DNA from: a virus
Direction: 5' to 3' (one strand)
DNA length: 64,000 nucleotides
Virus record (IMG/VR): IMGVR_UViG_3300035181_001974
Below, piece after piece: positions 20,677-35,038 of this stretch; position 1 is the first letter of the stretch; each line of letters opens with the position of its first letter. A model generated the notes under the pieces. It was not told the origin of the DNA. It did not search any database and saw nothing but the letters and a program-made list of their open reading frames with translations. The position numbers and the translations under genes were made by a program.

Positions 20677-22362
20677 TTGTCGGTTTGCACAACCACACGG
20701 GCTTCTCGTAATGCGCCCTTCGATGGTTTGGGCTATCCCGATGAACACTTCAAGTGGTGCATGGAGAACGGGCTCGATGGCCATGCCATCACCGAGCACG
20801 GGAACATGAACTCCTATGCCCACGCTCAACTGTGGGTCGAGGAGTGGGCCAAGGCCAATAAGGGAAAGTCGTTCAAGTACATTCCCGGCGTCGAGGCGTA
20901 CTACCATCCCGACCTGGAGCAATGGAAGAAGGACGTCGAACTCGCAGAGCAGGCGAAGGGAGACAGGAGGGTTGCGGCCAAGCTTGCTAAGGAGCAGGAA
21001 AAGCTGCAGACCAAGATCATCGCCACCATCGATGAAAATGATGAGACTGAGGACATTGAGATGTCCAACGCCTTGACTGTCGAAAACGAGGAAGAGTCCA
21101 AATCGACCAAACACTTCAATCCCGTCAACCGACGGCATCACCTAGTCATTCTGCCCAAGAACCAGAAGGGCCTGTTGGCGATCTTCGCAGCATGTTCGAA
21201 GGGATTCTTGAAGGGCTTCTACAAGTTCCCGCGCATTGACCATGCTGTCCTCAAAGAGGCAGCCAAAGGCGGCGACATCATCGTCAGCAGCGCTTGTATC
21301 GGCGGCATGCCGGCGTACTCCATATTCCAGGAAATCCAACAGTACAAGTTTGACGAGCTCGACGCACGGTTGCTCAGTGACCCTGTGCTGCTCGAGAAAT
21401 GCGTTGTCGCGGTGGGCAATACCTACCAGCACATGGTCGATGCAGTCGGCGAAGGAAACTACTTCCTCGAGCTGCAGTTCAATCGCCTACCGGCGCAGAA
21501 CCTCGTCAACCGCGCGATCCTGGAGTTCGCTCGTCGCAATGGGCTCAACAAGCAGCTGATCGTCACCGGCGATGCTCACTACTATAATCCCGATCGTTGG
21601 AAGGACCGTGAGCTCTACAAGCGCCTGGGTTGGATGAACTACCAGGAGATCAATCCTGACGCGATTCCGAAGTCGAAGGATGAGCTGAAGTGTGAGCTCT
21701 ATCCGAAGAACGCCCAACAGATGTGGGATGAGTACCAGCGCTCCAAGGAAGGCACCGACTGGTATGACGATGAAGTCGTCTGTGACGCCATTGAGCGGAC
21801 TCACGATATCGCACACAGTGTCATCGGGGAGATTCCACCCGATCGTTCGCCCAAGTTTCCGACGAGGTTGTTGGTGCCCGAAGGCACGACCTCGTTCAAT
21901 CACCTCATCTCGCTTTGTAAGGTGGGCATGGTGAAGCGTGGTCTTCAAGACAAGCCAGAGTATATCGCGCGCCTCAAGGAGGAACTCGGCGTCATTAAGG
22001 TGATGAAAAACTCTGACTACTTCATTTCCTACCAGAAGATCATGGAGCTGGCACGCAATGTGTGCCTTACCGGCCCAGCCCGCGGTTGTTTCGTTCCTGA
22101 GACGCGGGTTCTAATGGCTGACGGCATGCATGCTCCCATTGGCACCATCAAGGTGGGCGACGTTATCAAGGATGCATATGGTGTTGATCAGATGGTGACT
22201 CAGATCTTCAGGTATCAGGTTGATGAGGAGCTGCTAGAACTCGAGTTTGATGACGGTAAGAAGATCAGGTGCACCAAGGAGCATAAGTTTCTGACGAAGA
22301 ATCGTGGGTGGATTGAAGCACAACACTTGACTGAAGATGATGACCTAATCGAGGTTGAATGA
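20677..22362 (+). CDS. dnaE: DnaE N-terminal extein (PHP + palm start) fused to N-intein 1; true start at 20618 in another frame (frameshift)
   Basis: frame A 20618..20710 encodes MTQQGKEDAKGSSVRVPRRFVGLHNHTGFS* (PHP motif), frame of ORF continues NAPFDGLGYPDEH...; N-intein 1 = 22087..22359 (CFVPETRVLMADG...LIEVE). Confidence 0.8.
   Translation: MSVCTTTRASRNAPFDGLGYPDEHFKWCMENGLDGHAITEHGNMNSYAHAQLWVEEWAKANKGKSFKYIPGVEAYYHPDLEQWKKDVELAEQAKGDRRVAAKLAKEQEKLQTKIIATIDENDETEDIEMSNALTVENEEESKSTKHFNPVNRRHHLVILPKNQKGLLAIFAACSKGFLKGFYKFPRIDHAVLKEAAKGGDIIVSSACIGGMPAYSIFQEIQQYKFDELDARLLSDPVLLEKCVVAVGNTYQHMVDAVGEGNYFLELQFNRLPAQNLVNRAILEFARRNGLNKQLIVTGDAHYYNPDRWKDRELYKRLGWMNYQEINPDAIPKSKDELKCELYPKNAQQMWDEYQRSKEGTDWYDDEVVCDAIERTHDIAHSVIGEIPPDRSPKFPTRLLVPEGTTSFNHLISLCKVGMVKRGLQDKPEYIARLKEELGVIKVMKNSDYFISYQKIMELARNVCLTGPARGCFVPETRVLMADGMHAPIGTIKVGDVIKDAYGVDQMVTQIFRYQVDEELLELEFDDGKKIRCTKEHKFLTKNRGWIEAQHLTEDDDLIEVE
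22087..22359 (+). other. N-intein 1 (91 aa), followed by stop
   Basis: C1 after GPARG; block A CFVPETRVLMADG..GTIKVGDVI; block B TKEHKFLT. Confidence 0.8.
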
Positions 22363-22446: not shown

Positions 22447-22944
22447 ATGAAGCTCAGAAGTAAGACTGTCGTACCGTATAAGGGTGAGGTCGTAGACCTG
22501 TGTGTGGAAAACAGCCACACTTACAACGTGGAAGGTATTGCAGTCCACAATTCGGGCGGTGGCTCTCTGGTCGCCTACGTCCTATACATCACCGACTTGG
22601 ACCCGTTGTTCTGGGACCTGCCTTTCGCGCGATTCCTTAGCGTTCACAGGTGTCTGTCGCCAGACACAAAGGTATTGATGTCAGATGGTTCGTCGTCCGC
22701 GCTTCGAGACGTGAAAGTCGGTGACAGCGTTGTCTCACAGGATGGCTCACACCGTAAAGTTACGTTCACCATGACCACAAAACATGAGAAGACGTACCGC
22801 GTGAAGGTGAATGGTACTACGTTCACGTGTTCTGAAAATCATGTGTGGTTGACAGTGGGTCCTGATGGACAACCTGTGAAGAAGTATACATCTGAGCTGT
22901 CGACGAGTGACGAGCTGTACACGTACCACTATGAGCATCATTGA
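22447..22944 (+). CDS. dnaE: C-intein 1 (22447..22551) + extein 2 (22552..22650) + N-intein 2 (22651..22941)
   Basis: [35 protein letters not shown]|[33 protein letters not shown]|[13 protein letters not shown]... Confidence 0.8.
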
Positions 22945-23872
22945 GAAACAGTGTAAACACTGTGGTATTATGTTTCAGTTCAACTATGAGCCCAACTGCA
23001 AGGGTTCTGGTAGTAGGCTCCATCGCCCGTACTGCACTGATGAGTGTGCCGTCGCTCACAGGAAGCTGATGTCACACGCTCCCATGCCCTCGAGGCTTGT
23101 GAAGACGTGCGTCGAGTACGGCGATGAGTTCTACGTTCCAAAGTGTCACAACAACAGAAAACTATGTTCGAATGCGTGCAGGCACAAGTACACTGCGAAA
23201 GCGCTGACAAAGAATGAGCTCCGTACACTGACATGTGTACAGTGTCTAGGCACTTTCTCAACGAAGAACGTCAATCGCAGGTTCTGTTCACCCAAATGTT
23301 TCGCTGCATCGAGGTTTGACCGCCACACGTTGGTATGCGAAGTTTGTAGCGAACCGATCGTCACCAAGAAGAGCTACGTGCCGCGGTTCTGTTCCAAACG
23401 GTGCACCCGCGAGGCACAGTCACGTGATATGGTTGCTTCACATGTGAACGGACGCTCGTGTTTTCGTTCCGACATCCTAAACAGCCCGTACTTCAAGAGC
23501 TCGTTCGAAGCCGACTACTACAGATATTGCTTGCACCTCGGTAAGATGCCATTCTATGAACATAGGTCTTTCCATGTTGTCATCGATGGCAAAGAGAAGT
23601 GTTACACTCCAGACTTTTGGTTCAGTGATGAGGACCGATACGTGGAGTTGAAAGGTGTGCGAGAAGGCAAATCGCGTTTCTCAAAGTTGCTTAACTCAAA
23701 CGCACGTTCACGGGAAGTCGTTGTGGCGTCTGGTCAGCGCATCGACGTCGTGTACATGAATGACTTCTATGGTGAACTTCGTCGACAAGGTTTGTACCAT
23801 ACGATTGCCAATCTAGAGCACAGGGACTATGCAGGAACCCAACATCTCATCAGCAAGCACGGCCAAAATTGA
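22907..23872 (+). CDS. free-standing homing endonuclease (multi CxxC zinc-ribbon + PD-(D/E)xK core) between halves of intein 2
   Basis: six or more CxxC pairs; C-terminal [17 protein letters not shown] = PD..(D/E)xK motif; nested between N- and C-intein 2. Confidence 0.65.
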
Positions 23873-24566
23873 AGCTATCGAGGTTGTCGATGAAAGTGTA
23901 GAACTCATCGACATCGAGGTCGAAGGCCAGCATACGTTTTGGGTGTCCAACAACGATAGCGATTGGGTGCTGACACATAACTCTGGTGCTCCTGATATCG
24001 ACTGCGTCCACGAGGACCATCTTGTCGTCATGACAGACGGCACTCATAAGCGAGCTGTTGACATCATTGTCGGCGACGTCGTCCTGGGAGGCGATGGAAT
24101 GCCACACGCAGTAACTGCGACCTATGCTAGAAATTTGCGGCCATTCGAGGACGCTGTCTGGGTCAGAGTTAGGGCCAATGATGGTACGTTGGGCCACATT
24201 TTGGTGGTGCCCGGTCACAAATTTGTCAGAGCTGACGGCGTCATCGTGTACTGCCGCGACCTTAAGGTCGGAGATGAATTGATGGCATCATGCGGCAGCG
24301 TTGAGGTCGTATCGATCGAGCACGGTGGTTGGGGCTCTTCCAACGCTAGATACGTCGACCTGACTGTTGAAGACGATCACAGATTCCACGTGGTACCGTT
24401 CAATACGTCCATTCTAAGTGGAGGTGATCCATCACATGACGTCGGTTATTGCATGGGCGTCATTCCTGGCACGTTCCTTGCGTGTGGCGAAGGAGACAAT
24501 TTTTGCAGCGATTGGTGCGCGTCTAAGAGAAGAACAGACCACAGCGAGCGCAACTATGAAATTTGA
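23829..24566 (+). CDS. dnaE: C-intein 2 (to 23981) + extein 3 SGAPDID (23982..24002) + N-part of intein 3 (24003..24563)
   Basis: ...VELIDIEVEGQHTFWVSNNDSDWVLTHN|SGAPDID|CVHEDHLVVMTDGTHKRAVDIIVGDVV...PGHKFV...RYVDLTVEDDHRFHVV then a non-extein-like tail. Confidence 0.7.
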   Translation: MQEPNISSASTAKIEAIEVVDESVELIDIEVEGQHTFWVSNNDSDWVLTHNSGAPDIDCVHEDHLVVMTDGTHKRAVDIIVGDVVLGGDGMPHAVTATYARNLRPFEDAVWVRVRANDGTLGHILVVPGHKFVRADGVIVYCRDLKVGDELMASCGSVEVVSIEHGGWGSSNARYVDLTVEDDHRFHVVPFNTSILSGGDPSHDVGYCMGVIPGTFLACGEGDNFCSDWCASKRRTDHSERNYEI

Positions 24567-24868
24567 GCTGGAGTTGGGACCGTGTCCGAGCAACGTTGAT
24601 GCGGTGCAGCTTACAGACAACGGCGATTCTGCCGAGCAGATGATGTGATAGTGTCTGGCCTGGAAAGAATAGCTCAGACGAGAGCTGCAGAAAATCCTGA
24701 ATTTCAAGATTGTCAGGTCAAACTGCGCGTTAAAGGGTTTGAGCACGATTTGGCCCCCATACTATGGGGCTACGTCGTGCGATGACGCCGACGCCGACGA
24801 GCGCACAATTGACGCCATCTTCTGGCTCAAAGAAAATGCGTCCTCAAAGTTTGACGATGACATTAGCG

Positions 24869-26602
24869 TCACGCTGTGACGTCTAAGACGTAGCGAGAGT
24901 TGCTACAGCCATAGATGCGATAAACGCCGGCAGCCTCCGCTACCTGTTTTTCTGTTAGACCTTGCTTCTTGTTGGCTCGGTACTTGAACCTGTCGTAACG
25001 ATGCATGAAGTCAGTCCACCAGAAGCGAGCGACTGTGGTACCGTTGAACTTCATGCCTGAGGTGGCATAACCGTTTCCTCCCAAGCGATTGTCTGAGTAA
25101 GACATCAACCTCGCTGCATTGTTTTCTCTTGCTATAGCTTTTGCCTTTGATAGCAATTTTGACACCCCGCCTCGTACATGTGTGCCAAGCTTGAAGCACA
25201 GGCGAGCGATCTCAATCGTCGTTCTGTCTGCCCCATTTCGTGCCCACCTAAGGCTGCAGGCGCCTACGATTTCGCCCGATGAGGTTACCAATCGCACGGC
25301 AAATTGGGCCCTCACGTGACCGTCGAGGTGGCACTGATTGATGAATTCTCGAACTTCTTCGGGCTCGCAGCGTTCTGCTTTCAACTTACGCGCATCGACT
25401 TTGGTAGAAAACCCAAGGCGATGGCGCAACATGCTTTCGATTATCGGTCGTTTGTCGCGCCACTCATCCTCAAATAACGTGAAAAGCGATACGCCGGCTT
25501 TGAGGGACAGCAATCTCTTCTTTTCCGCGTGATCGTGCTCAAATCTATTGGCGGCCTCGCTGTGCCAGTATAGGCCATTGCACTCGATGGCAAACATGCG
25601 CGATGGAATGAGTATGTCGAGCTCCATTCCGCCGAGCGTCTTACGATCGCTAAGGACTGCGTCAGGTGCCAGCGTCTGGATAAATGCGTAGACGTCCTGT
25701 TGCCACCTGCTCGTTTTGTCTGACCAAGGCGGAAAGCAGGTGGGACACTTGGCCTCGTTGTTGAACACTGCGCCAACGCAACGCTCAAATATTGTTGAAC
25801 ATATCGTGCATTCGATGCGCGCTTTGGTGACAGTATCGACATATTCGTCAATGAGTTTAAGCTGCTTTTCTTTGAGGCGTTTTTGTACCTCGTCGTGCGT
25901 CAGCAACTTTGCCTTGCGCATTTTTTCAAGCGTTACGTCGCTAAAGAATCGTCCTTTCAACGAAGCGCTGATCTTCTTACTGCGAGATTCAATGATGCTA
26001 GACGTATCCTTTGTCAGGCCAAGTGACCAGCCGCTGTGCGTTGCATAATACCTCCGCAGGCTGTCGCTGATTTTTGCCGCCTTTTGTTTAAGGCTTTCGT
26101 TGTTTTCCTTTGTCTTGTCGGAGTTGTGGTGACCGTGTTCCTTGTAGTGAGCTCGCATGTTTGCAGCACTGGCTGACATGCGTTCGTCATTGTCTTTCGT
26201 CAGGCCTTTGTTCCATGACGAGGTGCCCTTGGACGCGTATGCGTGTTTTCGGCTACAACGTGGACACCGTTCGGGGTATCCTTTTTCTTGATCGATGAAC
26301 CTGACCCAGTCGCAACAATCGATGCACGTCTTCCTGCACCCTGGGTACCTTGTTTCATACACAACGACGGGTGATTTTTGGTGCGTTTTTGTGCAGTGCA
26401 ATGTCAACTTACGCCCGCTGTCATATGACGCCTCACACCACGGACACGCGTAAGTTGACACCTGTTTGGGAGGCCTGGCGTCTTCTCGCCTGTGTCGTGC
26501 CTCGTGGATCTTCAATGCTCGTAGCGTTTCGTGGTTTCGACCACAACGAGCGCATGTAAATTCAACTGTAGTTGAGTTAGGATTCATGTGATGGTCGTTC
26601 AT
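24869..26602 (-). CDS. homing endonuclease: C2H2 zinc fingers + NUMOD3 + Vsr-like (DUF559/EDxHD-type) nuclease + C-terminal GNAT-like domain; inserted antisense inside intein 3
   Basis: FTCARCGRNHETLRALKIHEARH and YACPWCEASY..HCTKTH fingers; NUMOD3-like GHHNSDKTKENNESLKQKAAKIS; nuclease core ELDILIPSRMFAIECNGLYWHSE...D; C-terminal RGGVSKLL...RFWWTD shared with 27288..29087. Confidence 0.7.
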   Translation of the reverse strand: MNDHHMNPNSTTVEFTCARCGRNHETLRALKIHEARHRREDARPPKQVSTYACPWCEASYDSGRKLTLHCTKTHQKSPVVVYETRYPGCRKTCIDCCDWVRFIDQEKGYPERCPRCSRKHAYASKGTSSWNKGLTKDNDERMSASAANMRAHYKEHGHHNSDKTKENNESLKQKAAKISDSLRRYYATHSGWSLGLTKDTSSIIESRSKKISASLKGRFFSDVTLEKMRKAKLLTHDEVQKRLKEKQLKLIDEYVDTVTKARIECTICSTIFERCVGAVFNNEAKCPTCFPPWSDKTSRWQQDVYAFIQTLAPDAVLSDRKTLGGMELDILIPSRMFAIECNGLYWHSEAANRFEHDHAEKKRLLSLKAGVSLFTLFEDEWRDKRPIIESMLRHRLGFSTKVDARKLKAERCEPEEVREFINQCHLDGHVRAQFAVRLVTSSGEIVGACSLRWARNGADRTTIEIARLCFKLGTHVRGGVSKLLSKAKAIARENNAARLMSYSDNRLGGNGYATSGMKFNGTTVARFWWTDFMHRYDRFKYRANKKQGLTEKQVAEAAGVYRIYGCSNSRYVLDVTA

Positions 26603-27445
26603 TCATTTTTGGCGTCCAACAAGAGCGTCGTTGTTCACAACACCGATCTTGCCAGGCGAGATGAGGTTCTTGATGAACTTCGAAACTTTTTTGGGTGGGA
26701 AAACGTCGTTCCCATCAGCAATTATAACTGTTTCAAACTAAAAACGCTTGTAAAGGATATCGGCAAGTTCTACGGCATCCCATTCGAGGAGACCAACGCT
26801 GCCACGCGGACCGTCGAGGACGAGGTCCGTAAGGCGACGATGAAGGAAGGCGACGACAAGAATCTGTTCGTCTTGACCTACGATGAGGCCATGGCCTTCC
26901 ACTGCAGGGCTCCTAAGGGCCCGGAGTCGAAGTCCATCTGCCAGGGCTGTAGCCCAGAGTGTAAGCAGCCGGTCAGCCCGTCGTTTCGCGGCTTCATTGA
27001 GAAGTACCCGGTCGTCGCCGAGTCGATCAAGATCCTCTTCAAGCAGAATCGTAGTCTCGGTCGTCACGCGGGTGGTGTGCTGATTGCAGACGATTTGCCC
27101 AACAAGATGCCTTTGGTGACGTCCAAAGGCAAGGCCGGCGTCCGCGAGCCACAGTCACCTTGGGTCGAGGGCGTAAATTATAAACACCTTGAGAAGATCG
27201 GAGAGTTCATCAAGTACGACCTCCTAGGTCTAGAAACGATGCGGCTCATCGAGCGCGCCATCGAGCTCATCATCAAAAAGGAACGACATGAAAGAGGGTG
27301 GTTTGAGATCCAACTCGACGATGGAACGACACGAGGCGTCTACGGCGACCAACGAATCGTCACCAGCAACAGGGGCACCATCCTTGCGAGGGAGCTCGGG
27401 CCCGGCGATGACATCGTGTCCTTCGAGGTGCCCACAGTGCAATGA
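26588..27445 (+). CDS. dnaE: very short C-part of intein 3 (at most 22 codons, ..HSFLASNKSVVVHN) + extein 4 (DnaE palm/fingers segment)
   Basis: VVVHN|TDLARRDEVLDELRNFFGWENVVPISNY..KTLVKDIGKFYGIPFEE aligns to E. coli [48 protein letters not shown]; later RHAGGVLIA, KYDLLGLETMRLIERAIELI; in-frame stop 3 codons upstream of the first listed start. Confidence 0.75.
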   Translation: MMVVHSFLASNKSVVVHNTDLARRDEVLDELRNFFGWENVVPISNYNCFKLKTLVKDIGKFYGIPFEETNAATRTVEDEVRKATMKEGDDKNLFVLTYDEAMAFHCRAPKGPESKSICQGCSPECKQPVSPSFRGFIEKYPVVAESIKILFKQNRSLGRHAGGVLIADDLPNKMPLVTSKGKAGVREPQSPWVEGVNYKHLEKIGEFIKYDLLGLETMRLIERAIELIIKKERHERGWFEIQLDDGTTRGVYGDQRIVTSNRGTILARELGPGDDIVSFEVPTVQ

Positions 27446-29087
27446 TCCATTGCGAAAAGCTAGCCTAAATTCGCTCCGCGCACATCTCCTTAAAAAGCAC
27501 GGGCTCAATGCGGAGGCTGCGTACCTTCTTTTTCGAGAGCACCCTGGACCGTGCGTTCAGTGTTCAGGGCCGGTCAAGTTCATGACCTTTCAAACGGGAT
27601 ATGAACGTCTCTGTGGAGTTTGTAGCAAGAAGAACTCTCAAGTAAGAGGTGCGCTTAGCCGGAAATCAAAATCATTGCCTGCATGGAACAAGGGGCTGTC
27701 AGAAACAACGTCTGAATCGGTTCGAAGGGCCGCACAAGGTTGTCGTGATTTCATCAAAAAACACGGGCACTGGAGAACAGGACAAACTAAAGAAAATAAT
27801 GAATCTATCACAAGAGCTGCGCATAACATCTCTCGAGCATTGACTGAAAAATGGCAAGTAGAAAAACACTGGACGCAGCACGGTCAGACGTCAGAAACTG
27901 ACGATAGGATCAAACGGCGATCAGAACGGATCGGCGAAGGCGTTCGCTTGAATCATTGGTCTCGGAACGCTAATTCTGAAGATATCAAACGTTCGATCAT
28001 CGAGACTAGAAAACGCCTTATCGAGAACGGCACTAACTCTCCTTTTCGGTTGTCTCTCGAAGAGGTCGAACGGCGAGTTGATGCACTGCGGTCGAGGTGG
28101 AACATCGAAAAATTTGAGTTTGCTGGATACTCAACACCGGTGCATGTGACATGCGTCAGTTGTAACGTACCTGATATTGTTCCCTTTAACGTCCTTTACA
28201 AGGGAAAGGTGTGTTCAACGTGCTACCCGGCTAATTTCTCTCGCTGGCATCGTGAGGTGTTCGATTTCTTCGTCAAGCTCGATTCGAACGCCATCGCCAA
28301 CGACAGACAGTCAATCGCGCCTTATGAGCTGGACATCGTGTCAGGTAACGGAAGGATTGCCATCGAGTGCAACGGTGTCTATTGGCACAGTGAGGCGACC
28401 GGTACTCCACCATCGTATCACCAAGACAAGTCGACTCGCGCTCTTGAGCGTGGTGTGTCGTTGCTACATATCTTCGACGATGAATGGCACCATGATGTAA
28501 AGAAAAACATCATCAAAAGCATGATCAGGGTAAAGCTTGGTCTTGCTACTCGCGTGATGGCACGAAAGCTACATCTTCGCAGCGGTCGTCCAGCCATCAC
28601 CGCTCAGTTCATGGCGAACAATCACCTCGATGGAAACACTCCTTCGTCGCATTCGTTCTGGCTAGAGGACATTGCTGGAAACATTATTTGTGCATTGACA
28701 TTGCGAAAACCGCACCAGCAGACTAAGTGGGGATCTAAGACAATTGAATTGGCGCGGGTTTCAACGGCCCGCGATACCATCGTCGTTGGAGGCATGTCGC
28801 GGTTGATCAACGCTGCCAGGGATTGGTCACGTGAGCATGGTTACCAAAAAATGATCACATACCGTGACATGAGGTTGGGTGGCACTGGCCGGGCGTATGA
28901 ACTATCTGGTTTTAGATTTGATCACATGACGCAGCCTAGGTTTTGGTGGACGGACGGACAAAATCGTATCGATAGATTTGCTGTCAGGGCGATTCCGGGG
29001 ATCGCATCACAAGAAGAGATGGCGATGGAACACAGGCTTTTTAAGATCTTTGGTTGCTCCAACGCGGTGTACGTTATGGACCTGTGA
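27411..29087 (+). CDS. homing endonuclease (paralog of 24869..26602) inserted directly in the dnaE extein; ORF track start 27288 is probably an overlap artefact
   Basis: Zn-finger/NUMOD3-like N-terminus, Vsr-like core ELDIVSGNGRIAIECNGVYWHSE, C-terminal GGMSRLI...RFWWTD...FGCSNAVYVMDL domain. Confidence 0.65.
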   Translation, partial: TSCPSRCPQCNDPLRKASLNSLRAHLLKKHGLNAEAAYLLFREHPGPCVQCSGPVKFMTFQTGYERLCGVCSKKNSQVRGALSRKSKSLPAWNKGLSETTSESVRRAAQGCRDFIKKHGHWRTGQTKENNESITRAAHNISRALTEKWQVEKHWTQHGQTSETDDRIKRRSERIGEGVRLNHWSRNANSEDIKRSIIETRKRLIENGTNSPFRLSLEEVERRVDALRSRWNIEKFEFAGYSTPVHVTCVSCNVPDIVPFNVLYKGKVCSTCYPANFSRWHREVFDFFVKLDSNAIANDRQSIAPYELDIVSGNGRIAIECNGVYWHSEATGTPPSYHQDKSTRALERGVSLLHIFDDEWHHDVKKNIIKSMIRVKLGLATRVMARKLHLRSGRPAITAQFMANNHLDGNTPSSHSFWLEDIAGNIICALTLRKPHQQTKWGSKTIELARVSTARDTIVVGGMSRLINAARDWSREHGYQKMITYRDMRLGGTGRAYELSGFRFDHMTQPRFWWTDGQNRIDRFAVRAIPGIASQEEMAMEHRLFKIFGCSNAVYVMDL

Positions 29088-29105
29088 AAGTACCTTTACA
29101 AAGAC

Positions 29106-29582
29106 ATGGCAAAAGTCGTTGCTAACGTTGACGCACATACAAATGCGGTATCATTCAATGACATCAAGACCTGGTTCGAGCAGCACATGCACCCGGCCGT
29201 CATTGATTTCACCGATCCCAAACCTTACGAGGTCTACGAGAAAGGCAAGTGGGCAGGCATCTTCCAGTGCGTCGACCAGGACACGGCAGTGCTGATGGGC
29301 GATGACTCGTACAAGTTGATCAAGGACGTCCATGTCGGTGACGAGGTGACGGTCTTCGATGAAGTCAAGCAGCAGTTCACCACATCAGTCGTCGACGTCG
29401 TTTACGACCAAGGACCCAAGGAGTGCATCGAGCTCGTGTTCGACGACGGCAAGAAGCTTGTCTGCACCGCTGATCATCCCATCTTGACGAAGAATCGCGG
29501 GTGGGTTGAGGCACAGCACCTAACCGAAGACGACGAGTTGATTGGGTCTAGCAGTGGTTACGAAGCTCGTGGATTGACGTGA
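29106..29582 (+). CDS. dnaE: extein 5 (29106..29267) + N-intein 4 (29268..29579)
   Basis: AVIDFTDPKPYEVYEKGKWAGIFQ|CVDQDTAVLMGDDSYKLIKDVHVGDEV...; N-intein 4 tail (LVFDDGKKLVCTADHPILTKNRGWVEAQHLTEDDELI) is paralogous to the N-intein 1 tail. Confidence 0.75.
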   Translation: MAKVVANVDAHTNAVSFNDIKTWFEQHMHPAVIDFTDPKPYEVYEKGKWAGIFQCVDQDTAVLMGDDSYKLIKDVHVGDEVTVFDEVKQQFTTSVVDVVYDQGPKECIELVFDDGKKLVCTADHPILTKNRGWVEAQHLTEDDELIGSSSGYEARGLT

Positions 29583-30056: not shown

Positions 30057-30624
30057 GCGCCACGTCTACGACATCGAGGTGCGAAATCATCATAATTTCG
30101 TCGCTAACGACGTCGTTGTTCACAATTGCACGGGCCAGGGCGCTCAGCGACTCTTTGTCAAAGGCAAGCCCAAGAGCATCATCGACATCGCGACGCTGAC
30201 CAGCATCTATCGCCCGGGTCCCTTGGCCGCCAAAGTCGATCGACTGTACTTGGAGGCGAAGAATGACGGCAAGGAGTTGGAGTGGGGCGATCACCGCGTC
30301 AACGACATCCTGAAGAAGACATACTCGTGTTTGACGGGTGACACACATATCCTTACTGAGCAAGGTGAGGTTCCCATTAGACAAATCGTTGAACAAGGAA
30401 TGGTGGGAACTAAGCTTCCGTCATACAATGAAATGACGAAGACCGTCGAGATGGACGAAGTTGTCGCTGTCGCCTCAAACGGCGTACGTGACATCATCGA
30501 GGTTGAGCTGGAGGGTGGAGAAACTTTGTCTTTGACTGAAGATCACCTTGTCATGACGCCTCGTGGTTGGGTGCAAGCAGGTGAACTGACGTCTGAAGAC
30601 GAGATTTTGGGAATGAAGTACTGA
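30025..30624 (+). CDS. dnaE: C-intein 4 (30025..30126) + extein 6 (30127..30327) + N-intein 5 (30328..30621)
   Basis: MKLVSSRSVGKRHVYDIEVRNHHNFVANDVVVHN|CTGQG..IATLTSIYRPGPLAAKVDRLY...KKTYS|CLTGDTHILTEQGEVP...; IYRPGPL matches DnaE ALFRPGPL. Confidence 0.8.
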   Translation: MKLVSSRSVGKRHVYDIEVRNHHNFVANDVVVHNCTGQGAQRLFVKGKPKSIIDIATLTSIYRPGPLAAKVDRLYLEAKNDGKELEWGDHRVNDILKKTYSCLTGDTHILTEQGEVPIRQIVEQGMVGTKLPSYNEMTKTVEMDEVVAVASNGVRDIIEVELEGGETLSLTEDHLVMTPRGWVQAGELTSEDEILGMKY

Positions 30625-30847: not shown

Positions 30848-31093
30848 ATGAAGATTGATGATTTTGAAGAGGAGTTGCTTACGTCGTTCAAGAACTTTAT
30901 CAACACGATGAAGTCACATACGGCATTTGGAAAGCGTGATGATCTCACGTATGCCGACTGGTTCGACACATTTCGAGCTTATGAAGAGGTCGGAAATGAT
31001 ATGGAGCTCGAATACCATGGTCAACGTGTTTTGAGTGTTGATGGACCAGTGTGCCAACTCTGCGCATCATCATTGAACATGAAAGAAAAATGA
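30848..31093 (+). CDS. hypothetical small protein inside intein 5 gap
   Basis: 81-aa ORF. Confidence 0.35.
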   Translation: MKIDDFEEELLTSFKNFINTMKSHTAFGKRDDLTYADWFDTFRAYEEVGNDMELEYHGQRVLSVDGPVCQLCASSLNMKEK

Positions 31094-31094
31094 T

Positions 31095-31412
31095 ATGAGC
31101 GCAGATCTTTACACTAGCGAGATCGATGACGATGTTTATGGATCTCTAACGCTAGAGATGAACGTTCATGGGAATTTGCGAATCATTGCATATGATCCTG
31201 GGACTAGAGATTTGGTAGGTTGCTGTCAGTTTCCACCCTCGCATGAGGGTTTCAACGAAGCCCAACGATTGATCAACGCTTTGCAAGAATGGATGCGTCA
31301 TGTGGGGGAAAATCTCAACCCTTGCCGAGTCGTTCTAGGCAGTGATGCTTTGTCGCGCTCAATGTCATTACACATTGTTTGTCAGACTCATCGTGAAACG
31401 GAGCGTAAGTGA
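31095..31412 (+). CDS. hypothetical small protein inside intein 5 gap
   Basis: 105-aa ORF, start 1 nt after previous stop. Confidence 0.35.
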   Translation: MSADLYTSEIDDDVYGSLTLEMNVHGNLRIIAYDPGTRDLVGCCQFPPSHEGFNEAQRLINALQEWMRHVGENLNPCRVVLGSDALSRSMSLHIVCQTHRETERK

Positions 31413-32110
31413 TGCCTGACGTAGTTCCCGTCAAGATCCGTGCGATCAAGCGTGTTCCTGCACAGCCTGTGTACGACATCCAGGTCAAGAAGAACAACAA
31501 CTTCTTCGCAAATGGCCTTCTCGTGCATAACTGCATAATTTTTCAGGAACAGGTGATGGAACTCGCCGAGAAGGCTGCCGGCTTCCCGAAGGACAAGTGT
31601 GACGAGGTCCGTCGCGCAATCATGAAGCGCAGCATCTCGGGCGGTGAGGCGGCAAAGAAGGCAGCCCAAGAGACCCGTGACGGGTTCGTCAAGGGTTGCA
31701 TCGCCAACGGTTATACCGAGAAGGTGGCCAACAACCTCTACGACAAGATTCTGTACTTCGCGGGCTACGGCTTCAATAAAAGTTTGTACTTTTCGGAACC
31801 AGTAAATACCTTTTTTTCAGACGGCACGTTCAAAGAGACAAAGCAGCTTCAACACATCGAACCCGGCGACCTGGTCATGTCTCGTGATGAGAATTCAGGT
31901 AAAAACATCCTCGTCCCTGTTGTTGCAAAACACGACCACGGTGAGCTAGACTTGGTAGAAGTGGAGTTGGTGACCGGAGAGAAGGTAAAGTGCACGTGGG
32001 ATCACAAGTTCAGGACGAAGGAGACAAACGAGATGTTGCCCCTGTGGATGATTGCCGAACGGGGCCTCAGCATCGTTGTGACCGATGTAGCAGGCTCTTC
32101 GTCTACCTGA
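31409..32110 (+). CDS. dnaE: C-intein 5 (31409..31531) + extein 7 (31532..31780) + N-intein 6 (31781..32107, Ser1)
   Basis: ...PVYDIQVKKNNNFFANGLLVHN|CIIFQEQVMELAEK...KILYFAGYGFNK|SLYFSEPVNTFFSDGTFKE...TWDHKF; extein matches E. coli GIILYQEQVMQIAQ...VEKFAGYGFNKS. Confidence 0.8.
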   Translation: MMPDVVPVKIRAIKRVPAQPVYDIQVKKNNNFFANGLLVHNCIIFQEQVMELAEKAAGFPKDKCDEVRRAIMKRSISGGEAAKKAAQETRDGFVKGCIANGYTEKVANNLYDKILYFAGYGFNKSLYFSEPVNTFFSDGTFKETKQLQHIEPGDLVMSRDENSGKNILVPVVAKHDHGELDLVEVELVTGEKVKCTWDHKFRTKETNEMLPLWMIAERGLSIVVTDVAGSSST

Positions 32111-33039
32111 AGGCCTACGAAAAACACCAAGCTAGGTGCCAAGGATTCATACTCGGTGACAGTGAGAGTGTCACATGCCAAGTCTGTGGCTTCACGGGTA
32201 AGGCACTGGCAAAGCACTTGTCGGGGACGCATGGTATGAGCAAAGAAGAATACCTGAAAGCGTACCCGACTGCCGCAATCACATCGAAAGTCTCGACAGC
32301 GCGTTTCAAGCATCGTGGGCAGAATTTCGCCTGGCTCAAACGAGCGAAGGCACGCGGTGATGATTTGACTGCCTACAAGGAAAAGATGGGCCGTGCGGTC
32401 AGTGAGGCCATCACGAGCAATCCGGGCGAGAGGAAACGTCGCTCTGAACTAATGGGAGAACTTAATCGACGACCTGAAGCCCGTAAACGTTCATCAGACG
32501 TTGCAAGACTAACGTCAACCCGGCCTGAGATACTCAAGGCACGTGCTGAGCGCCTGGCCCGTTGGCGTGAGTTGAACCCCGATGAGTTCTACGAAAAGTG
32601 CACAAAAGCTGCACATGCTATTTGGCATAGCATTCCGGAATTAGCGTTGTTTGATTTGTTGAAAAACGTTGAAGGTTATGATTTTGTTCATAATCAGGTC
32701 GTCAAGTCAGTTGCTTTTCCAAACAAATCTAAAAGAAAGCAAGTTGACATTGCCGATCGATCAAGACACATTTATGTTGAATTTGATGGAATCATCCATT
32801 TTAATGCACGTATTAAAGGCGAGGATAATTTTGAACGAGTGAAGTGCATGGATGCAATGCTTGATGATTACATCACTAAACATGATTGGACACTCATTCG
32901 AATTTCTTACGATCAGTTCTCATACAAGGATGGCGGTCGCTTCGAACCTGATTGCTTGAAAAAGCTTTTTGAGATCCTGAAAGATCCTCGACCTGGCGTT
33001 CATCGGATAGGAAAAGCGTATGAAAAGACCGCCGTTTGA
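31990..33039 (+). CDS. free-standing homing endonuclease (Zn finger + basic NUMOD-like linker + Vsr-like core) between halves of intein 6
   Basis: CDRCSRL..HQARCQ and CQVCGF..H finger; core HIYVEFDGIIHFNARIKGEDN...LIRISYDQF (DUF559/Vsr pattern). Confidence 0.65.
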   Translation: MHVGSQVQDEGDKRDVAPVDDCRTGPQHRCDRCSRLFVYLKAYEKHQARCQGFILGDSESVTCQVCGFTGKALAKHLSGTHGMSKEEYLKAYPTAAITSKVSTARFKHRGQNFAWLKRAKARGDDLTAYKEKMGRAVSEAITSNPGERKRRSELMGELNRRPEARKRSSDVARLTSTRPEILKARAERLARWRELNPDEFYEKCTKAAHAIWHSIPELALFDLLKNVEGYDFVHNQVVKSVAFPNKSKRKQVDIADRSRHIYVEFDGIIHFNARIKGEDNFERVKCMDAMLDDYITKHDWTLIRISYDQFSYKDGGRFEPDCLKKLFEILKDPRPGVHRIGKAYEKTAV

Positions 33040-33244
33040 AATCGCACTGAATGACATTGCCCAACGCATGGGTCTGAGTCCGATCGAACTGTTACGGGCC
33101 GCGGCACGTTACCGACGCAAAAGCGAAACGAAGGTTGAACTCCAGCCGACTGACGAGTACATTGAAGAAGAGTATGCTAAAGCAATGCTTGATGAACCGA
33201 ACGCAGGAGCGATCGAAGACCTGTTGAAGGACCTGCTCACATGA
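33020..33244 (+). CDS. hypothetical small protein
   Basis: 74-aa ORF between HEG6 and C-intein 6. Confidence 0.3.
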   Translation: MKRPPFEIALNDIAQRMGLSPIELLRAAARYRRKSETKVELQPTDEYIEEEYAKAMLDEPNAGAIEDLLKDLLT

Positions 33245-34371
33245 GTAACATCAAGTCTATCACACCCGTGGGTCGACACCAGACCTATGACCTCGAAGTC
33301 GATCACCCGGATCACCAGTTCTATCTCGCTAACGGGATACTGACGTCTAACAGCCATGCAGTGGCATACGCCATTGACAGCTTCTGGTGCGCCTGGCTGA
33401 TGACATATCACGAGGAGGAATGGCTGTGTGCCTATCTCGAAAGCATGTCGCACACTCCTGCTCAACGTGCTAAGGCGTTCAGCGAGGTAAAGGCCTTGGG
33501 CTATCAGATCGTCCCGATCGACATCAACCTGGCGGGGCTCGGGTGGACCGCGCTGCCCGGCAAGAAGTTGATGCCGTCGATGACGTCCTGCAAGGGTGTC
33601 GGCGACTCGGCGGTCGAAGAGATCATGGCCAACCGTCCCTACAACACTATCGAGGAGTTGCTGTGGGATGACAACTTCGAGTGGAAACACAGCAAGTTCA
33701 ACAAGAAGGCGATGGAGGCCCTGGTCAAGATCGGTGCCTTCGGCAGTATGGACATCGTGGGCGAAGGCAAGGTCTTCAACAACTATCATCACATGCACGA
33801 GGTCCTCTTCGGTTCTCACGTGGAGACCGTGACCAAGAAGCGCAAGGGCGTCGAGGTCACCGAAGAGGTCGACATCGATCACGGGGCGTTGATCAAGCGA
33901 CACCCGAAGTCTGACCCGCACGAGGGCCTTAAGAACTTCTACCAGTTGGTCAGGGACTACGCTGACATCGAGGACTGGTCGTCTTCTGAACGTGCTCAAA
34001 ATATGGTCGACGTCTTCGGTGCTTTGGACGTCACCGCCATGATTGACATCGAAATCTTGGCTGCCTTGGAGAAGAAGGGCGTCAATAGCATTGACGACCT
34101 GGAGCACGGTGACACGGCGGTCGTCTGGTTTGTCACGGCCCCTGTTGCTGCAAAGAAGGGTGGCAAGCCGGTGACGGGCATCAAGAAGAAGACCCGCAAT
34201 GGCAAGGAATATGTGCAAATCTTTGCGGTTGGACCCACTGGCAAGGCCACGAAGATTTCTGTCTGGGGCGGCAAGGAGCTTCCTGACCCCTTCATCCTGT
34301 GTTGTGCCGAGGTCAAGAGGGACGACTTTGGCGCGTCGACGACGGTCTGGAAGTTGAGGGAAATCACGTAA
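33241..34371 (+). CDS. dnaE: C-intein 6 (33241..33351, ends TSN) + extein 8 = DnaE C-terminal region (fingers end, OB domain)
   Basis: MSNIKSITPVGRHQTYDLEVDHPDHQFYLANGILTSN|SHAVAYAIDSFWCAWLMTYH..; LGYQIVPIDINLAG matches E. coli GLKILPPDINSG; KGVGDSAVEEIMANR matches KGVGEGPIEAIIEAR. Confidence 0.8.
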   Translation: MSNIKSITPVGRHQTYDLEVDHPDHQFYLANGILTSNSHAVAYAIDSFWCAWLMTYHEEEWLCAYLESMSHTPAQRAKAFSEVKALGYQIVPIDINLAGLGWTALPGKKLMPSMTSCKGVGDSAVEEIMANRPYNTIEELLWDDNFEWKHSKFNKKAMEALVKIGAFGSMDIVGEGKVFNNYHHMHEVLFGSHVETVTKKRKGVEVTEEVDIDHGALIKRHPKSDPHEGLKNFYQLVRDYADIEDWSSSERAQNMVDVFGALDVTAMIDIEILAALEKKGVNSIDDLEHGDTAVVWFVTAPVAAKKGGKPVTGIKKKTRNGKEYVQIFAVGPTGKATKISVWGGKELPDPFILCCAEVKRDDFGASTTVWKLREIT

Positions 34372-34564
34372 ACATAAAACCCATGTACACCTACGAACAG
34401 TTGATCGAGAAGATAGTCCGTGCCAAGGTCTCGCTGGCAACCACCGCGGGCACTCGGACTCGTGCCCAGCTGAATGCGATCACGAGGGCTACGCTCCGTG
34501 CAACTGTGGGGCCACGGCACACAACAGTCATATCTCTGCGTCTTTGGAGGACCTGAAGCTATGA

Positions 34565-35038
34565 ATGACGAGGGCGTGCCCAACGCGGACGCACTCCGAC
34601 AGTGGGCCGAGGCTTGGGAAGCCGCTGAACAACAGTGGGAAGAGACGATGGAGAGGACGGAGCGCGACAACAGGTGCCTCGAGGAAGAAAGGATCGCAGA
34701 TGAGTCGACGCGGCATCGTGATAACGCTACAGGTCTCTCTCCCAACTTGGGATAAAGAAAAGAACCAGTGGATGTTGCCTCCTCCCAGCGTTAAGCTGGC
34801 GCGGAAGCTACGCATGGCCCTCAGCAATGACATGACAGAAGCCTCGGAGGAAGAGATCGAGGCGTATGCCGTCCAGCTAGCTGAGGACTTCAAGAAAGAA
34901 GTCACGCTTGATGAGTGGAGTGGATTTTTCCGCGGGATCATCGAGCGAGTTCGTGACTATGATCGCGAGGGTCACGAGCGACGTGCTAGATTTAGCAACA
35001 TCTCCCCGGGCATCGGCAACCGCAAGGACGACGTTTAG
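34565..35038 (+). CDS. hypothetical protein
   Basis: 157-aa ORF; overlapping alternative frames make the start uncertain. Confidence 0.3.
   Translation: MTRACPTRTHSDSGPRLGKPLNNSGKRRWRGRSATTGASRKKGSQMSRRGIVITLQVSLPTWDKEKNQWMLPPPSVKLARKLRMALSNDMTEASEEEIEAYAVQLAEDFKKEVTLDEWSGFFRGIIERVRDYDREGHERRARFSNISPGIGNRKDDV

Follow-up and report, generated by a model that had tools for sequence, protein, structure and literature searches.

Split inteins in which a free-standing homing-endonuclease gene lies between the two intein halves have been described as 'fractured genes'; the work describing them covers three metagenomic DnaE loci and a Vsr-like family of endonucleases (Dassa et al., 2009; PMC2677866), of which I-Bth0305I has been described as a representative (PMC3239194). 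In fractured genes the N-terminal intein half (IntN) is 88-105 amino acids and the C-terminal half (IntC) 33-54 amino acids long, and Cys1 is among the catalytic residues (PMC2677866). Split inteins are also found in cyanobacterial DnaE, where the two halves come from different loci, an endonuclease is lacking, Cys is found at positions 1 and +1, and the insertion point is intein/CFNK (slashes denote intein borders throughout). Naturally split inteins that are independent of cysteine include Neq Pol, Aes123 PolB1 (CL/CLm), PolB16 OarG, CP21 PolB1, LCGC14 PolB2 and GOM-OPS-1 PolB2, all of them in B-family polymerases, and natural split inteins in which both junctions have Ser have been described as very rare (Pasch et al., 2023). 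Here we analyzed the last interruption of a DnaE gene in a 64,000-nucleotide stretch of viral DNA (IMG/VR record IMGVR_UViG_3300035181_001974), referred to as the window. The interruption, located at positions 31781-33351 on the plus strand, was found to have the layout of a fractured gene, Ser at both junctions and homology to the Npu DnaE intein.

We hold with a probability of roughly 85% that this element is a naturally split class-1 intein with a HINT fold, its break lying in the loop where endonucleases are usually inserted, that it interrupts the GYGFNK/SHA motif of DnaE in a large phage-like genome, and that the split was made or is kept by a free-standing gene for a zinc-finger and Vsr/DUF559-like endonuclease. 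The locus resembles fractured genes in having N-extein plus IntN, an endonuclease open reading frame (ORF) and IntC plus C-extein in this order on one strand, in being hosted by a phage-like DNA-metabolism gene and in the Vsr-like endonuclease, and its intein fragments of 109 and 37 amino acids are in or near the ranges given above. It differs from them by Ser at position 1 where they have Cys, by an extra ORF of 74 amino acids between the endonuclease and IntC, and by five further interruptions in the same gene.

The N-terminal part is encoded by an ORF at 31409-32110 (+) whose first part is the C half of the intein before it (...FFANGLLVHN/C), followed by 98 residues of the DnaE finger domain. 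The N-extein segment was placed at 31523-31780 (+) by tblastn of the intein-free DnaE of L008 (relatives are referred to by locus number), by Pfam matches to DNA_pol3_finger and Intein_splicing and by translation, and it ends ...AGYGFNK. The translated ORF reads ...KILYFAGYGFNK/SLYFSEPVNTFFSDGTFKE...KVKCTWDHKF...KVKCTWDHKFRTKETNEMLPLWMIAERGLSIVVTDVAGSSST and is closed by a TGA at 32108-32110. IntN occupies 31781-32107 (+; 109 amino acids, from Ser1 to ...GSSST), as defined by translation, homology to the Npu DnaE intein, six homologues from a protein search (53-72% identity) and more than 140 loci. The C-terminal part is encoded by an ORF at 33241-34371 (+), which is in a frame other than that of IntN and has its own ATG, 9 nucleotides downstream of a Shine-Dalgarno-like GAAGGA. 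It reads MSNIKS...HQFYLANGILTSN/SHAVAYA and continues to the DnaE C-terminus. IntC, located by translation and homology at 33241-33351 (+), consists of the 37 amino acids MSNIKSITPVGRHQTYDLEVDHPDHQFYLANGILTSN, contains blocks F and G, has Ser as its penultimate residue and ends in Asn37 (33349-33351, +); the C-extein follows directly as SHAVAYAIDSFWC..., i.e., Ser+1 (33352-33354, +) and then HAVAYAIDSFWC... to the end of DnaE, including an HHH_6 domain (33352-34371, +; Pfam, intein-free homologues and tblastn). IntN, at the C-terminal end of the N-extein ORF, and IntC are therefore encoded in separate ORFs that differ in frame, and each of the two is joined to one extein.

The splice junctions were fixed by relatives that lack the intein. 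A scan with the C-terminal ORF gave 13 viral loci, some of them intein-free, and in L001, L003 and L013 the uninterrupted DnaE reads GYGFNKSHAVAYA and ...GYGFNKSHAVAYAIDS(F/Y). Since this matches what excision of Ser1 to Asn37 restores, the junction K/S...N/S is exact. The sequence-only reading had placed Ser at position 1, after ...GYGFNK, blocks A and B with TWDHKF in the N half, and SHAVAYA with Ser at +1 behind the C half, all of which was found to be correct. It had treated 31781-33351 as one intein; here the borders stood and the single intein ORF did not, because IntN ends at the stop codon 32108-32110, IntC starts from its ATG at 33241 in another frame, and two ORFs lie between them. 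No alternative junction with a Cys1 is available, the first Cys of the intein being residue 71.

The catalytic positions of the window intein are occupied by Ser1 (AGT, 31781-31783, +), by Thr72 and His75 of block B (N3; Cys71-Thr72-Trp73-Asp74-His75 at 31991-32005, +, with the TxxH motif T72-W-D-H75 at 31994-32005), by Asp and His at positions 4 and 13 of block F (YDLEV...DHQF), by the terminal Asn and by Ser+1. The sole catalytic or assisting position left unfilled is that of the penultimate His (block G position 6), where IntC has Ser36. As a separate observation, the intein-free alleles L008, L012, L002, L005-L007 and L009-L011 have Ala and not Ser at +1 (NKAH, NRAH, NCAH), and such alleles, if invaded, could not support splicing.

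The lack of a penultimate His had been noted before as a peculiarity. The C half does end ...NGILTSN before SHAVAYA, with the Asn at 33349-33351, but the ending is, judged by the relatives, a trait of the lineage and not an oddity. Nearly all of the 113 loci with both junctions have SN before SH, mostly as TSN, with VSN, SSN, NSN, GAN, SAN and NRN as variants. When the fused halves were compared to solved structures, they matched the Npu DnaE split intein (4KL5/2KEQ, E = 5e-13), the Ssp DnaE intein (E = 5e-7) and gp41-1 (E = 2e-3). The Npu DnaE intein, the closest solved relative with 36% identity over 107 positions, ends ...NGFIASN and is likewise without the penultimate His, and the Ssp DnaE intein ends AAN. 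According to reviews the penultimate His is usual and not obligatory, and several inteins are without it.

The cyanobacterial DnaE split inteins share with the window intein the host protein, the same conserved motif, the split at the same loop and the missing penultimate His. In contrast to them, the window intein is inserted at GFNK/SH, four residues downstream of their site, has Ser at both position 1 and +1, is encoded at one locus with an endonuclease ORF between the halves, and carries His53 where Npu has the equivalent Arg50. Based on this comparison the window intein is homologous to the cyanobacterial DnaE split inteins and not allelic to them.

Relatives were collected by IntN-alignment scans, which gave 62 viral loci and the best 80 of 143 metagenomic relatives, and by an independent IntC-seeded scan, which gave the best 80 of 120 viral relatives. 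The IntN-alignment scan of 185,579 species genomes gave only five matches, all in metagenome-assembled genomes on contigs of 3-44 kb, while the host contigs of family members were up to 459 kb. Given where the matches fell and the size of these contigs, we take the family to be, in essence, a large-phage family. At the same insertion site the intein was found in a split form, with a gap of approximately 1.3-1.6 kb holding an ORF of 300-440 amino acids (approximately 60 unique loci), and in a contiguous form, either as mini-inteins of 134-149 amino acids or as forms of 428 amino acids. The three-frame layout of the window, i.e., an IntN stop, an overlapping endonuclease ORF and a separate start for IntC, is repeated in dozens of independent contigs. 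In an ungapped flank comparison, L079 (4037-4471; in cis, 145 amino acids) and L080 (4037-5426; split, with endonuclease) were 98-99% identical at the DNA level in both exteins and both intein halves. The two differ by a loop cassette of approximately 955 bp and by an ACG/ATG difference that supplies the IntC start, and the pair shows how the split state may arise or revert.

The first ORF between the intein halves of the window encodes the putative free-standing homing endonuclease (31990-33039, +; identified by Pfam, PHROG and profile matches). Its beginning lies over the 3' end of IntN, in another frame, and the start codon may be GTG 31990 or GTG 32044. The N-terminus carries zinc fingers of the C2HC/ROS-MucR type (Pfam ROS_MUCR, E = 3e-6), and the C-terminal domain matches the PHROG homing-endonuclease families phrog_559 and phrog_9084. 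A profile of 18 family endonucleases has an invariant E..D-G..H...D and matches the DUF559 "endonuclease-like" structure PDB 3HRL (E = 9e-4); among the same 18, Pfam identified DUF559 in nine and Vsr in one. The GC content of the nuclease region (32600-32900) is 0.365, compared to approximately 0.55 in the exteins. The domain thus belongs, by its profile, to the DUF559/Vsr-like group, its composition is foreign, and it is predicted to be a nuclease. The E..D-G..H...D core and the position as a free-standing ORF inside a mobile element are what it shares with Vsr-like/DUF559 endonucleases; the N-terminal ROS/MucR-type zinc fingers are a feature of the window endonuclease.

Endonucleases of other kinds occur in the same intein family. 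In L053-L069, a basal clade with Cys1, a different subtype lies between the halves (classic EVDGDYWH...LIRFWE with NUMOD3 matches), and one intervening ORF, probably from L063, has the motif LRGILDGDGSV, which has a LAGLIDADG-like look. The endonuclease therefore appears to have been swapped within one intein allele.

The residue at position 1 was Ser in 72, Cys in 45 and Thr in 17 of the 134 unique IntN sequences at the K/S site, and no other residue was found. Together with the SN ending in nearly all of the 113 loci, this shows that neither Ser1 nor the ending is a one-off error. Both AGT/AGC and all four TCN codons encode Ser1 across the relatives. The AGY and TCN codons are linked only via Cys (TGY) or Thr (ACY) intermediates, and the presence of both Ser codon families points to long-term selection for Ser. 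We built a neighbour-joining tree of 87 unique inteins, with the scored columns excluded, and counted changes by Fitch parsimony; this gave 18 changes among Ser, Cys and Thr, approximately 10 of them between oxygen and sulphur, and nine changes between His and non-His at residue 53.

Residue 53 was found to follow the nucleophile. Among unique sequences, His53 was present in 88 of 89 with Ser or Thr at position 1 and in three of 42 with Cys1 (Fisher's exact test, 1e-28, with no phylogenetic correction), whereas His51 was less specific (80/89 and 23/42, respectively). In eight of nine separate Cys1 lineages, compared by eye, residue 53 was Asn, Ser, Thr, Gln or Cys, while the Ser1 or Thr1 neighbours had His. 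The window carries K50-H51-D52-H53, i.e., the oxygen-type set, with His51-Asp52-His53 (KHDHG) at 31931-31939 (+).

A histidine of motif NX is conserved only in Ser1 inteins, was found essential in three of them, and is preceded by Lys or Arg (Pasch et al., 2023). In the supplementary alignment of that study, taken from a garbled text and aligned on the left, PolB16 His68 falls on Npu Arg50, the equivalent of window residue 53. By our own reading, residue 53 is also a better fit than residue 51 to the register that the NX beta-hairpin has with block B in the rows for Neq Pol and Mja RFC-2. The rule of a preceding Lys or Arg fits His51, which follows Lys50, and not His53, which follows Asp52. 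A literature search on the roles of His48 and Arg50 in the Npu and Ssp inteins found nothing relevant. Cysteine-independent split inteins carry the Ser1-specific NX histidine, and His53 is likely its counterpart in the window intein. The window intein resembles these inteins in having Ser1 with Ser or Thr at +1, in the oxyester chemistry this would entail and in being naturally split, and several of them are likewise from phages or metagenomes. It differs in its host, DnaE instead of a B-family polymerase, in its relationship to Npu DnaE and, compared to cysteine-less inteins, in keeping one Cys outside the junctions, Cys71, and its activity is a prediction.

The Ser at position 1 might instead be an inactivating Cys-to-Ser change in a decaying relic, with the DnaE fragments being either non-functional or associated only non-covalently. 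Several Cys1 inteins lose their activity through C1S substitutions (Pasch et al., 2023), the close allelic relative L004 has Cys1, AGT is one step from TGT, and the gene has other interruptions of atypical look. These points are outweighed by the distribution described above, where Ser1 is found in more than half of the unique relatives (72/134) in both Ser codon families, and where it comes with the Ser/Thr-specific His53 that the window also has. All other catalytic positions are intact. Furthermore, contiguous mini-inteins with Ser1 (L079, L091 and L145) must splice if their DnaE is made at all. We therefore regard a relic as improbable. As Ser1 is under family-wide selection and covaries with His53, and as relatives with Ser1 exist in cis, the window element is probably an active split intein that is catalytically independent of cysteine.

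It is far less probable that Cys71, next to block B, and not Ser1 is the nucleophile, in the manner of class 3 inteins. Class 3 inteins are defined by the WCT triplet (Trp at B:12, Cys at F:4 and Thr at G:5) and the lack of a nucleophile at position 1 (Tori et al., 2010). Cys71 is shared by 128 of 131 family members, and Thr is found at block G position 5 as in the triplet, but this is the only one of the three residues that matches: block B position 12 is Phe77 and not Trp, and block F position 4 is Asp and not Cys. Position 1 is always Ser, Cys or Thr, and Ser1 is present in the window. Residue 71 is Ala in Npu DnaE and Ala, Ser or Ile in a few relatives, and Cys71 is probably replaceable. 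The invariance of C-T-x-x-H-K-F was in part imposed by the IntN search patterns, and it was rechecked with loci retrieved through IntC.

A T7 run at 31811-31817 (+) had been suspected of being a slippery site or an error hotspot. It is the sole T7/A7 run in the 64 kb, where 5.2 ± 2.8 are expected, hence there is no excess of such runs. The run encodes Phe11-Phe12-Ser13 of IntN in frame, relatives have NTYF(S/P)DG at the same place, and the conserved block B follows downstream in the same frame. The suspicion was therefore dropped, and a frameshift at the poly-T run was rejected, the frame being conserved. Least credible of all is a contiguous maxi-intein with a nested endonuclease, in which errors of sequencing or assembly, perhaps in homopolymers like this T7 run, produced the stop codon and the frame changes, since, although contiguous relatives with large inserts exist (L051 and L147-L154, with inteins of 428 amino acids), the run lies upstream of conserved in-frame sequence, the three-frame layout is found in dozens of independent contigs and a single frame would need several indels.

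For a split class-1 intein at this site, class-1 intein chemistry suggests the following course. Two polypeptides would be made, one consisting of the N-extein and IntN (109 amino acids) and the other of IntC (37 amino acids) and the C-terminal 339 residues of DnaE, and the two halves would associate and fold. Ser1 would then carry out an N-to-O acyl shift at Lys(-1), aided by Thr72 and His75 of block B and probably by His53 and His51, after which the ester would be passed on to Ser+1. Asn37 of IntC would cyclise unaided by a penultimate His, like its counterpart in the cyanobacterial DnaE inteins, and an O-to-N shift would restore GFNK-SHAVAYA. The split state itself would have been created, or would be maintained, by the free-standing endonuclease gene in the intein loop.

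Several observations weigh against this interpretation. Splicing of the window intein, as of all family members, is deduced from sequence. The Pfam HINT models match IntN only below their thresholds, and a single-sequence AlphaFold model of the fused halves was unusable, with a predicted local distance difference test (pLDDT) score of 39. The NX histidine may be His51 instead of His53. With respect to the endonuclease, the start codon is unclear, as there is no ATG upstream of its zinc fingers, and the nuclease domain of the window ORF matches no Pfam model by itself. Finally, as two further interruptions in this DnaE gene have an atypical look, its product may not be assembled into an active enzyme.

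If the element is a split intein as proposed, the C-terminal third of DnaE would have to be joined to the rest by trans-splicing, via oxygen and not sulphur chemistry. The more interesting result is at the level of the family, where the nucleophile appears to have switched repeatedly and together with a histidine, and where members with Thr1 occur in nature. We give about even odds to the wider view that a large, uncharacterised intein allele of phage DnaE, related to Npu DnaE, has changed its nucleophile between Ser, Cys and Thr many times, each oxygen/sulphur switch being matched by His or non-His at residue 53. It would then represent a natural experiment on nucleophile choice that includes natural Thr1 inteins as well as mesophilic, thiol-independent split members with Ser1. 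The latter would come from the lineage of an intein that is among those most widely used in engineering. Natural split inteins that are independent of thiols are rare and of practical interest, and further candidates for protein ligation in oxidising conditions would come from a family that is hosted by DnaE and homologous to Npu DnaE. C1S swaps usually kill inteins, and how the nucleophile is selected in evolution is unclear (Pasch et al., 2023); the Ser/Cys/Thr polymorphism with its covarying His bears on both questions.

Thr1 was found in 17 unique family members, with GFNK/TLYF..., TLTEDT..., TCHF..., TLALFE... and others at the start of the intein. These are located at L029, L034, L049-L051, L081, L098, L126, L137 and L147-L154 and are split in some cases and contiguous in others; six of the Thr1 members among the 87 sequences of the tree are contiguous. 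Thr1 was previously stated not to be observed in natural inteins (Tori et al., 2010), and reviews from 2014 and 2020 name only Cys or Ser for position 1. A limited literature search found no later report of natural Thr1 inteins.

The second ORF between the intein halves, here termed ORF-Y (33020-33244, +; 74 amino acids by translation), starts within the endonuclease stop region and ends across the start codon of IntC (ATGA). It had no Pfam or PHROG match and looks helix-turn-helix-like, as judged by eye only. ORF-Y is kept as a separate overlapping ORF in L016/L157 with 58% amino acid identity (L016 5264-5425); a similar stretch, identified by eye, is located at the C-terminus of the endonuclease ORF of L004, and ORF-Y is absent in L014. 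A scan of 31000-34600 for promoters and terminators gave no signal above chance between the pieces; co-transcription of the intein and extein pieces is plausible, and separate transcription is neither supported nor excluded by the signal scan.

The entire DnaE of the window is spread over seven ORF pieces, separated by six interruptions, between 20677 and 34371 (+). By tblastn of the intein-free DnaE of L008, the extein blocks were located at 20713-22086, 22552-22686, 26639-27316, 29151-29330, 30118-30354, 31523-31780 and 33352-34368 (+). For DnaE to be assembled correctly, a single protein would have to rely on several split inteins that are orthogonal to one another. A GenBank phage search with the 3-kb region around the last interruption found no relative of it, the sole match being 76 nucleotides of the C half of the neighbouring intein. 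Here window 31409-31522 matched Brucella phage Tb 3801-3876 with 77.6% identity, in the terminase/HNH region of Brucella phages.

In the second interruption (22660-26640), the open frame before ...VVVHN/T is only approximately 22 codons long, which makes for an unusually short C half. Its 3.6-kb gap holds ORFs at 22907-23872 and 23829-24566 and, on the minus strand, an ORF of 577 amino acids at 24869-26602. The third interruption (27300-29150) does not look like a canonical intein: the N part of approximately 50 amino acids has no Cys, Ser or Thr at the junction and no block B, and the C part is 13 amino acids long and ends MAKVVANVDAHTN/AVSF, with Ala at +1. It contains a homing-endonuclease ORF of 599 amino acids at 27288-29087 (phrog_3339, E = 1e-59).

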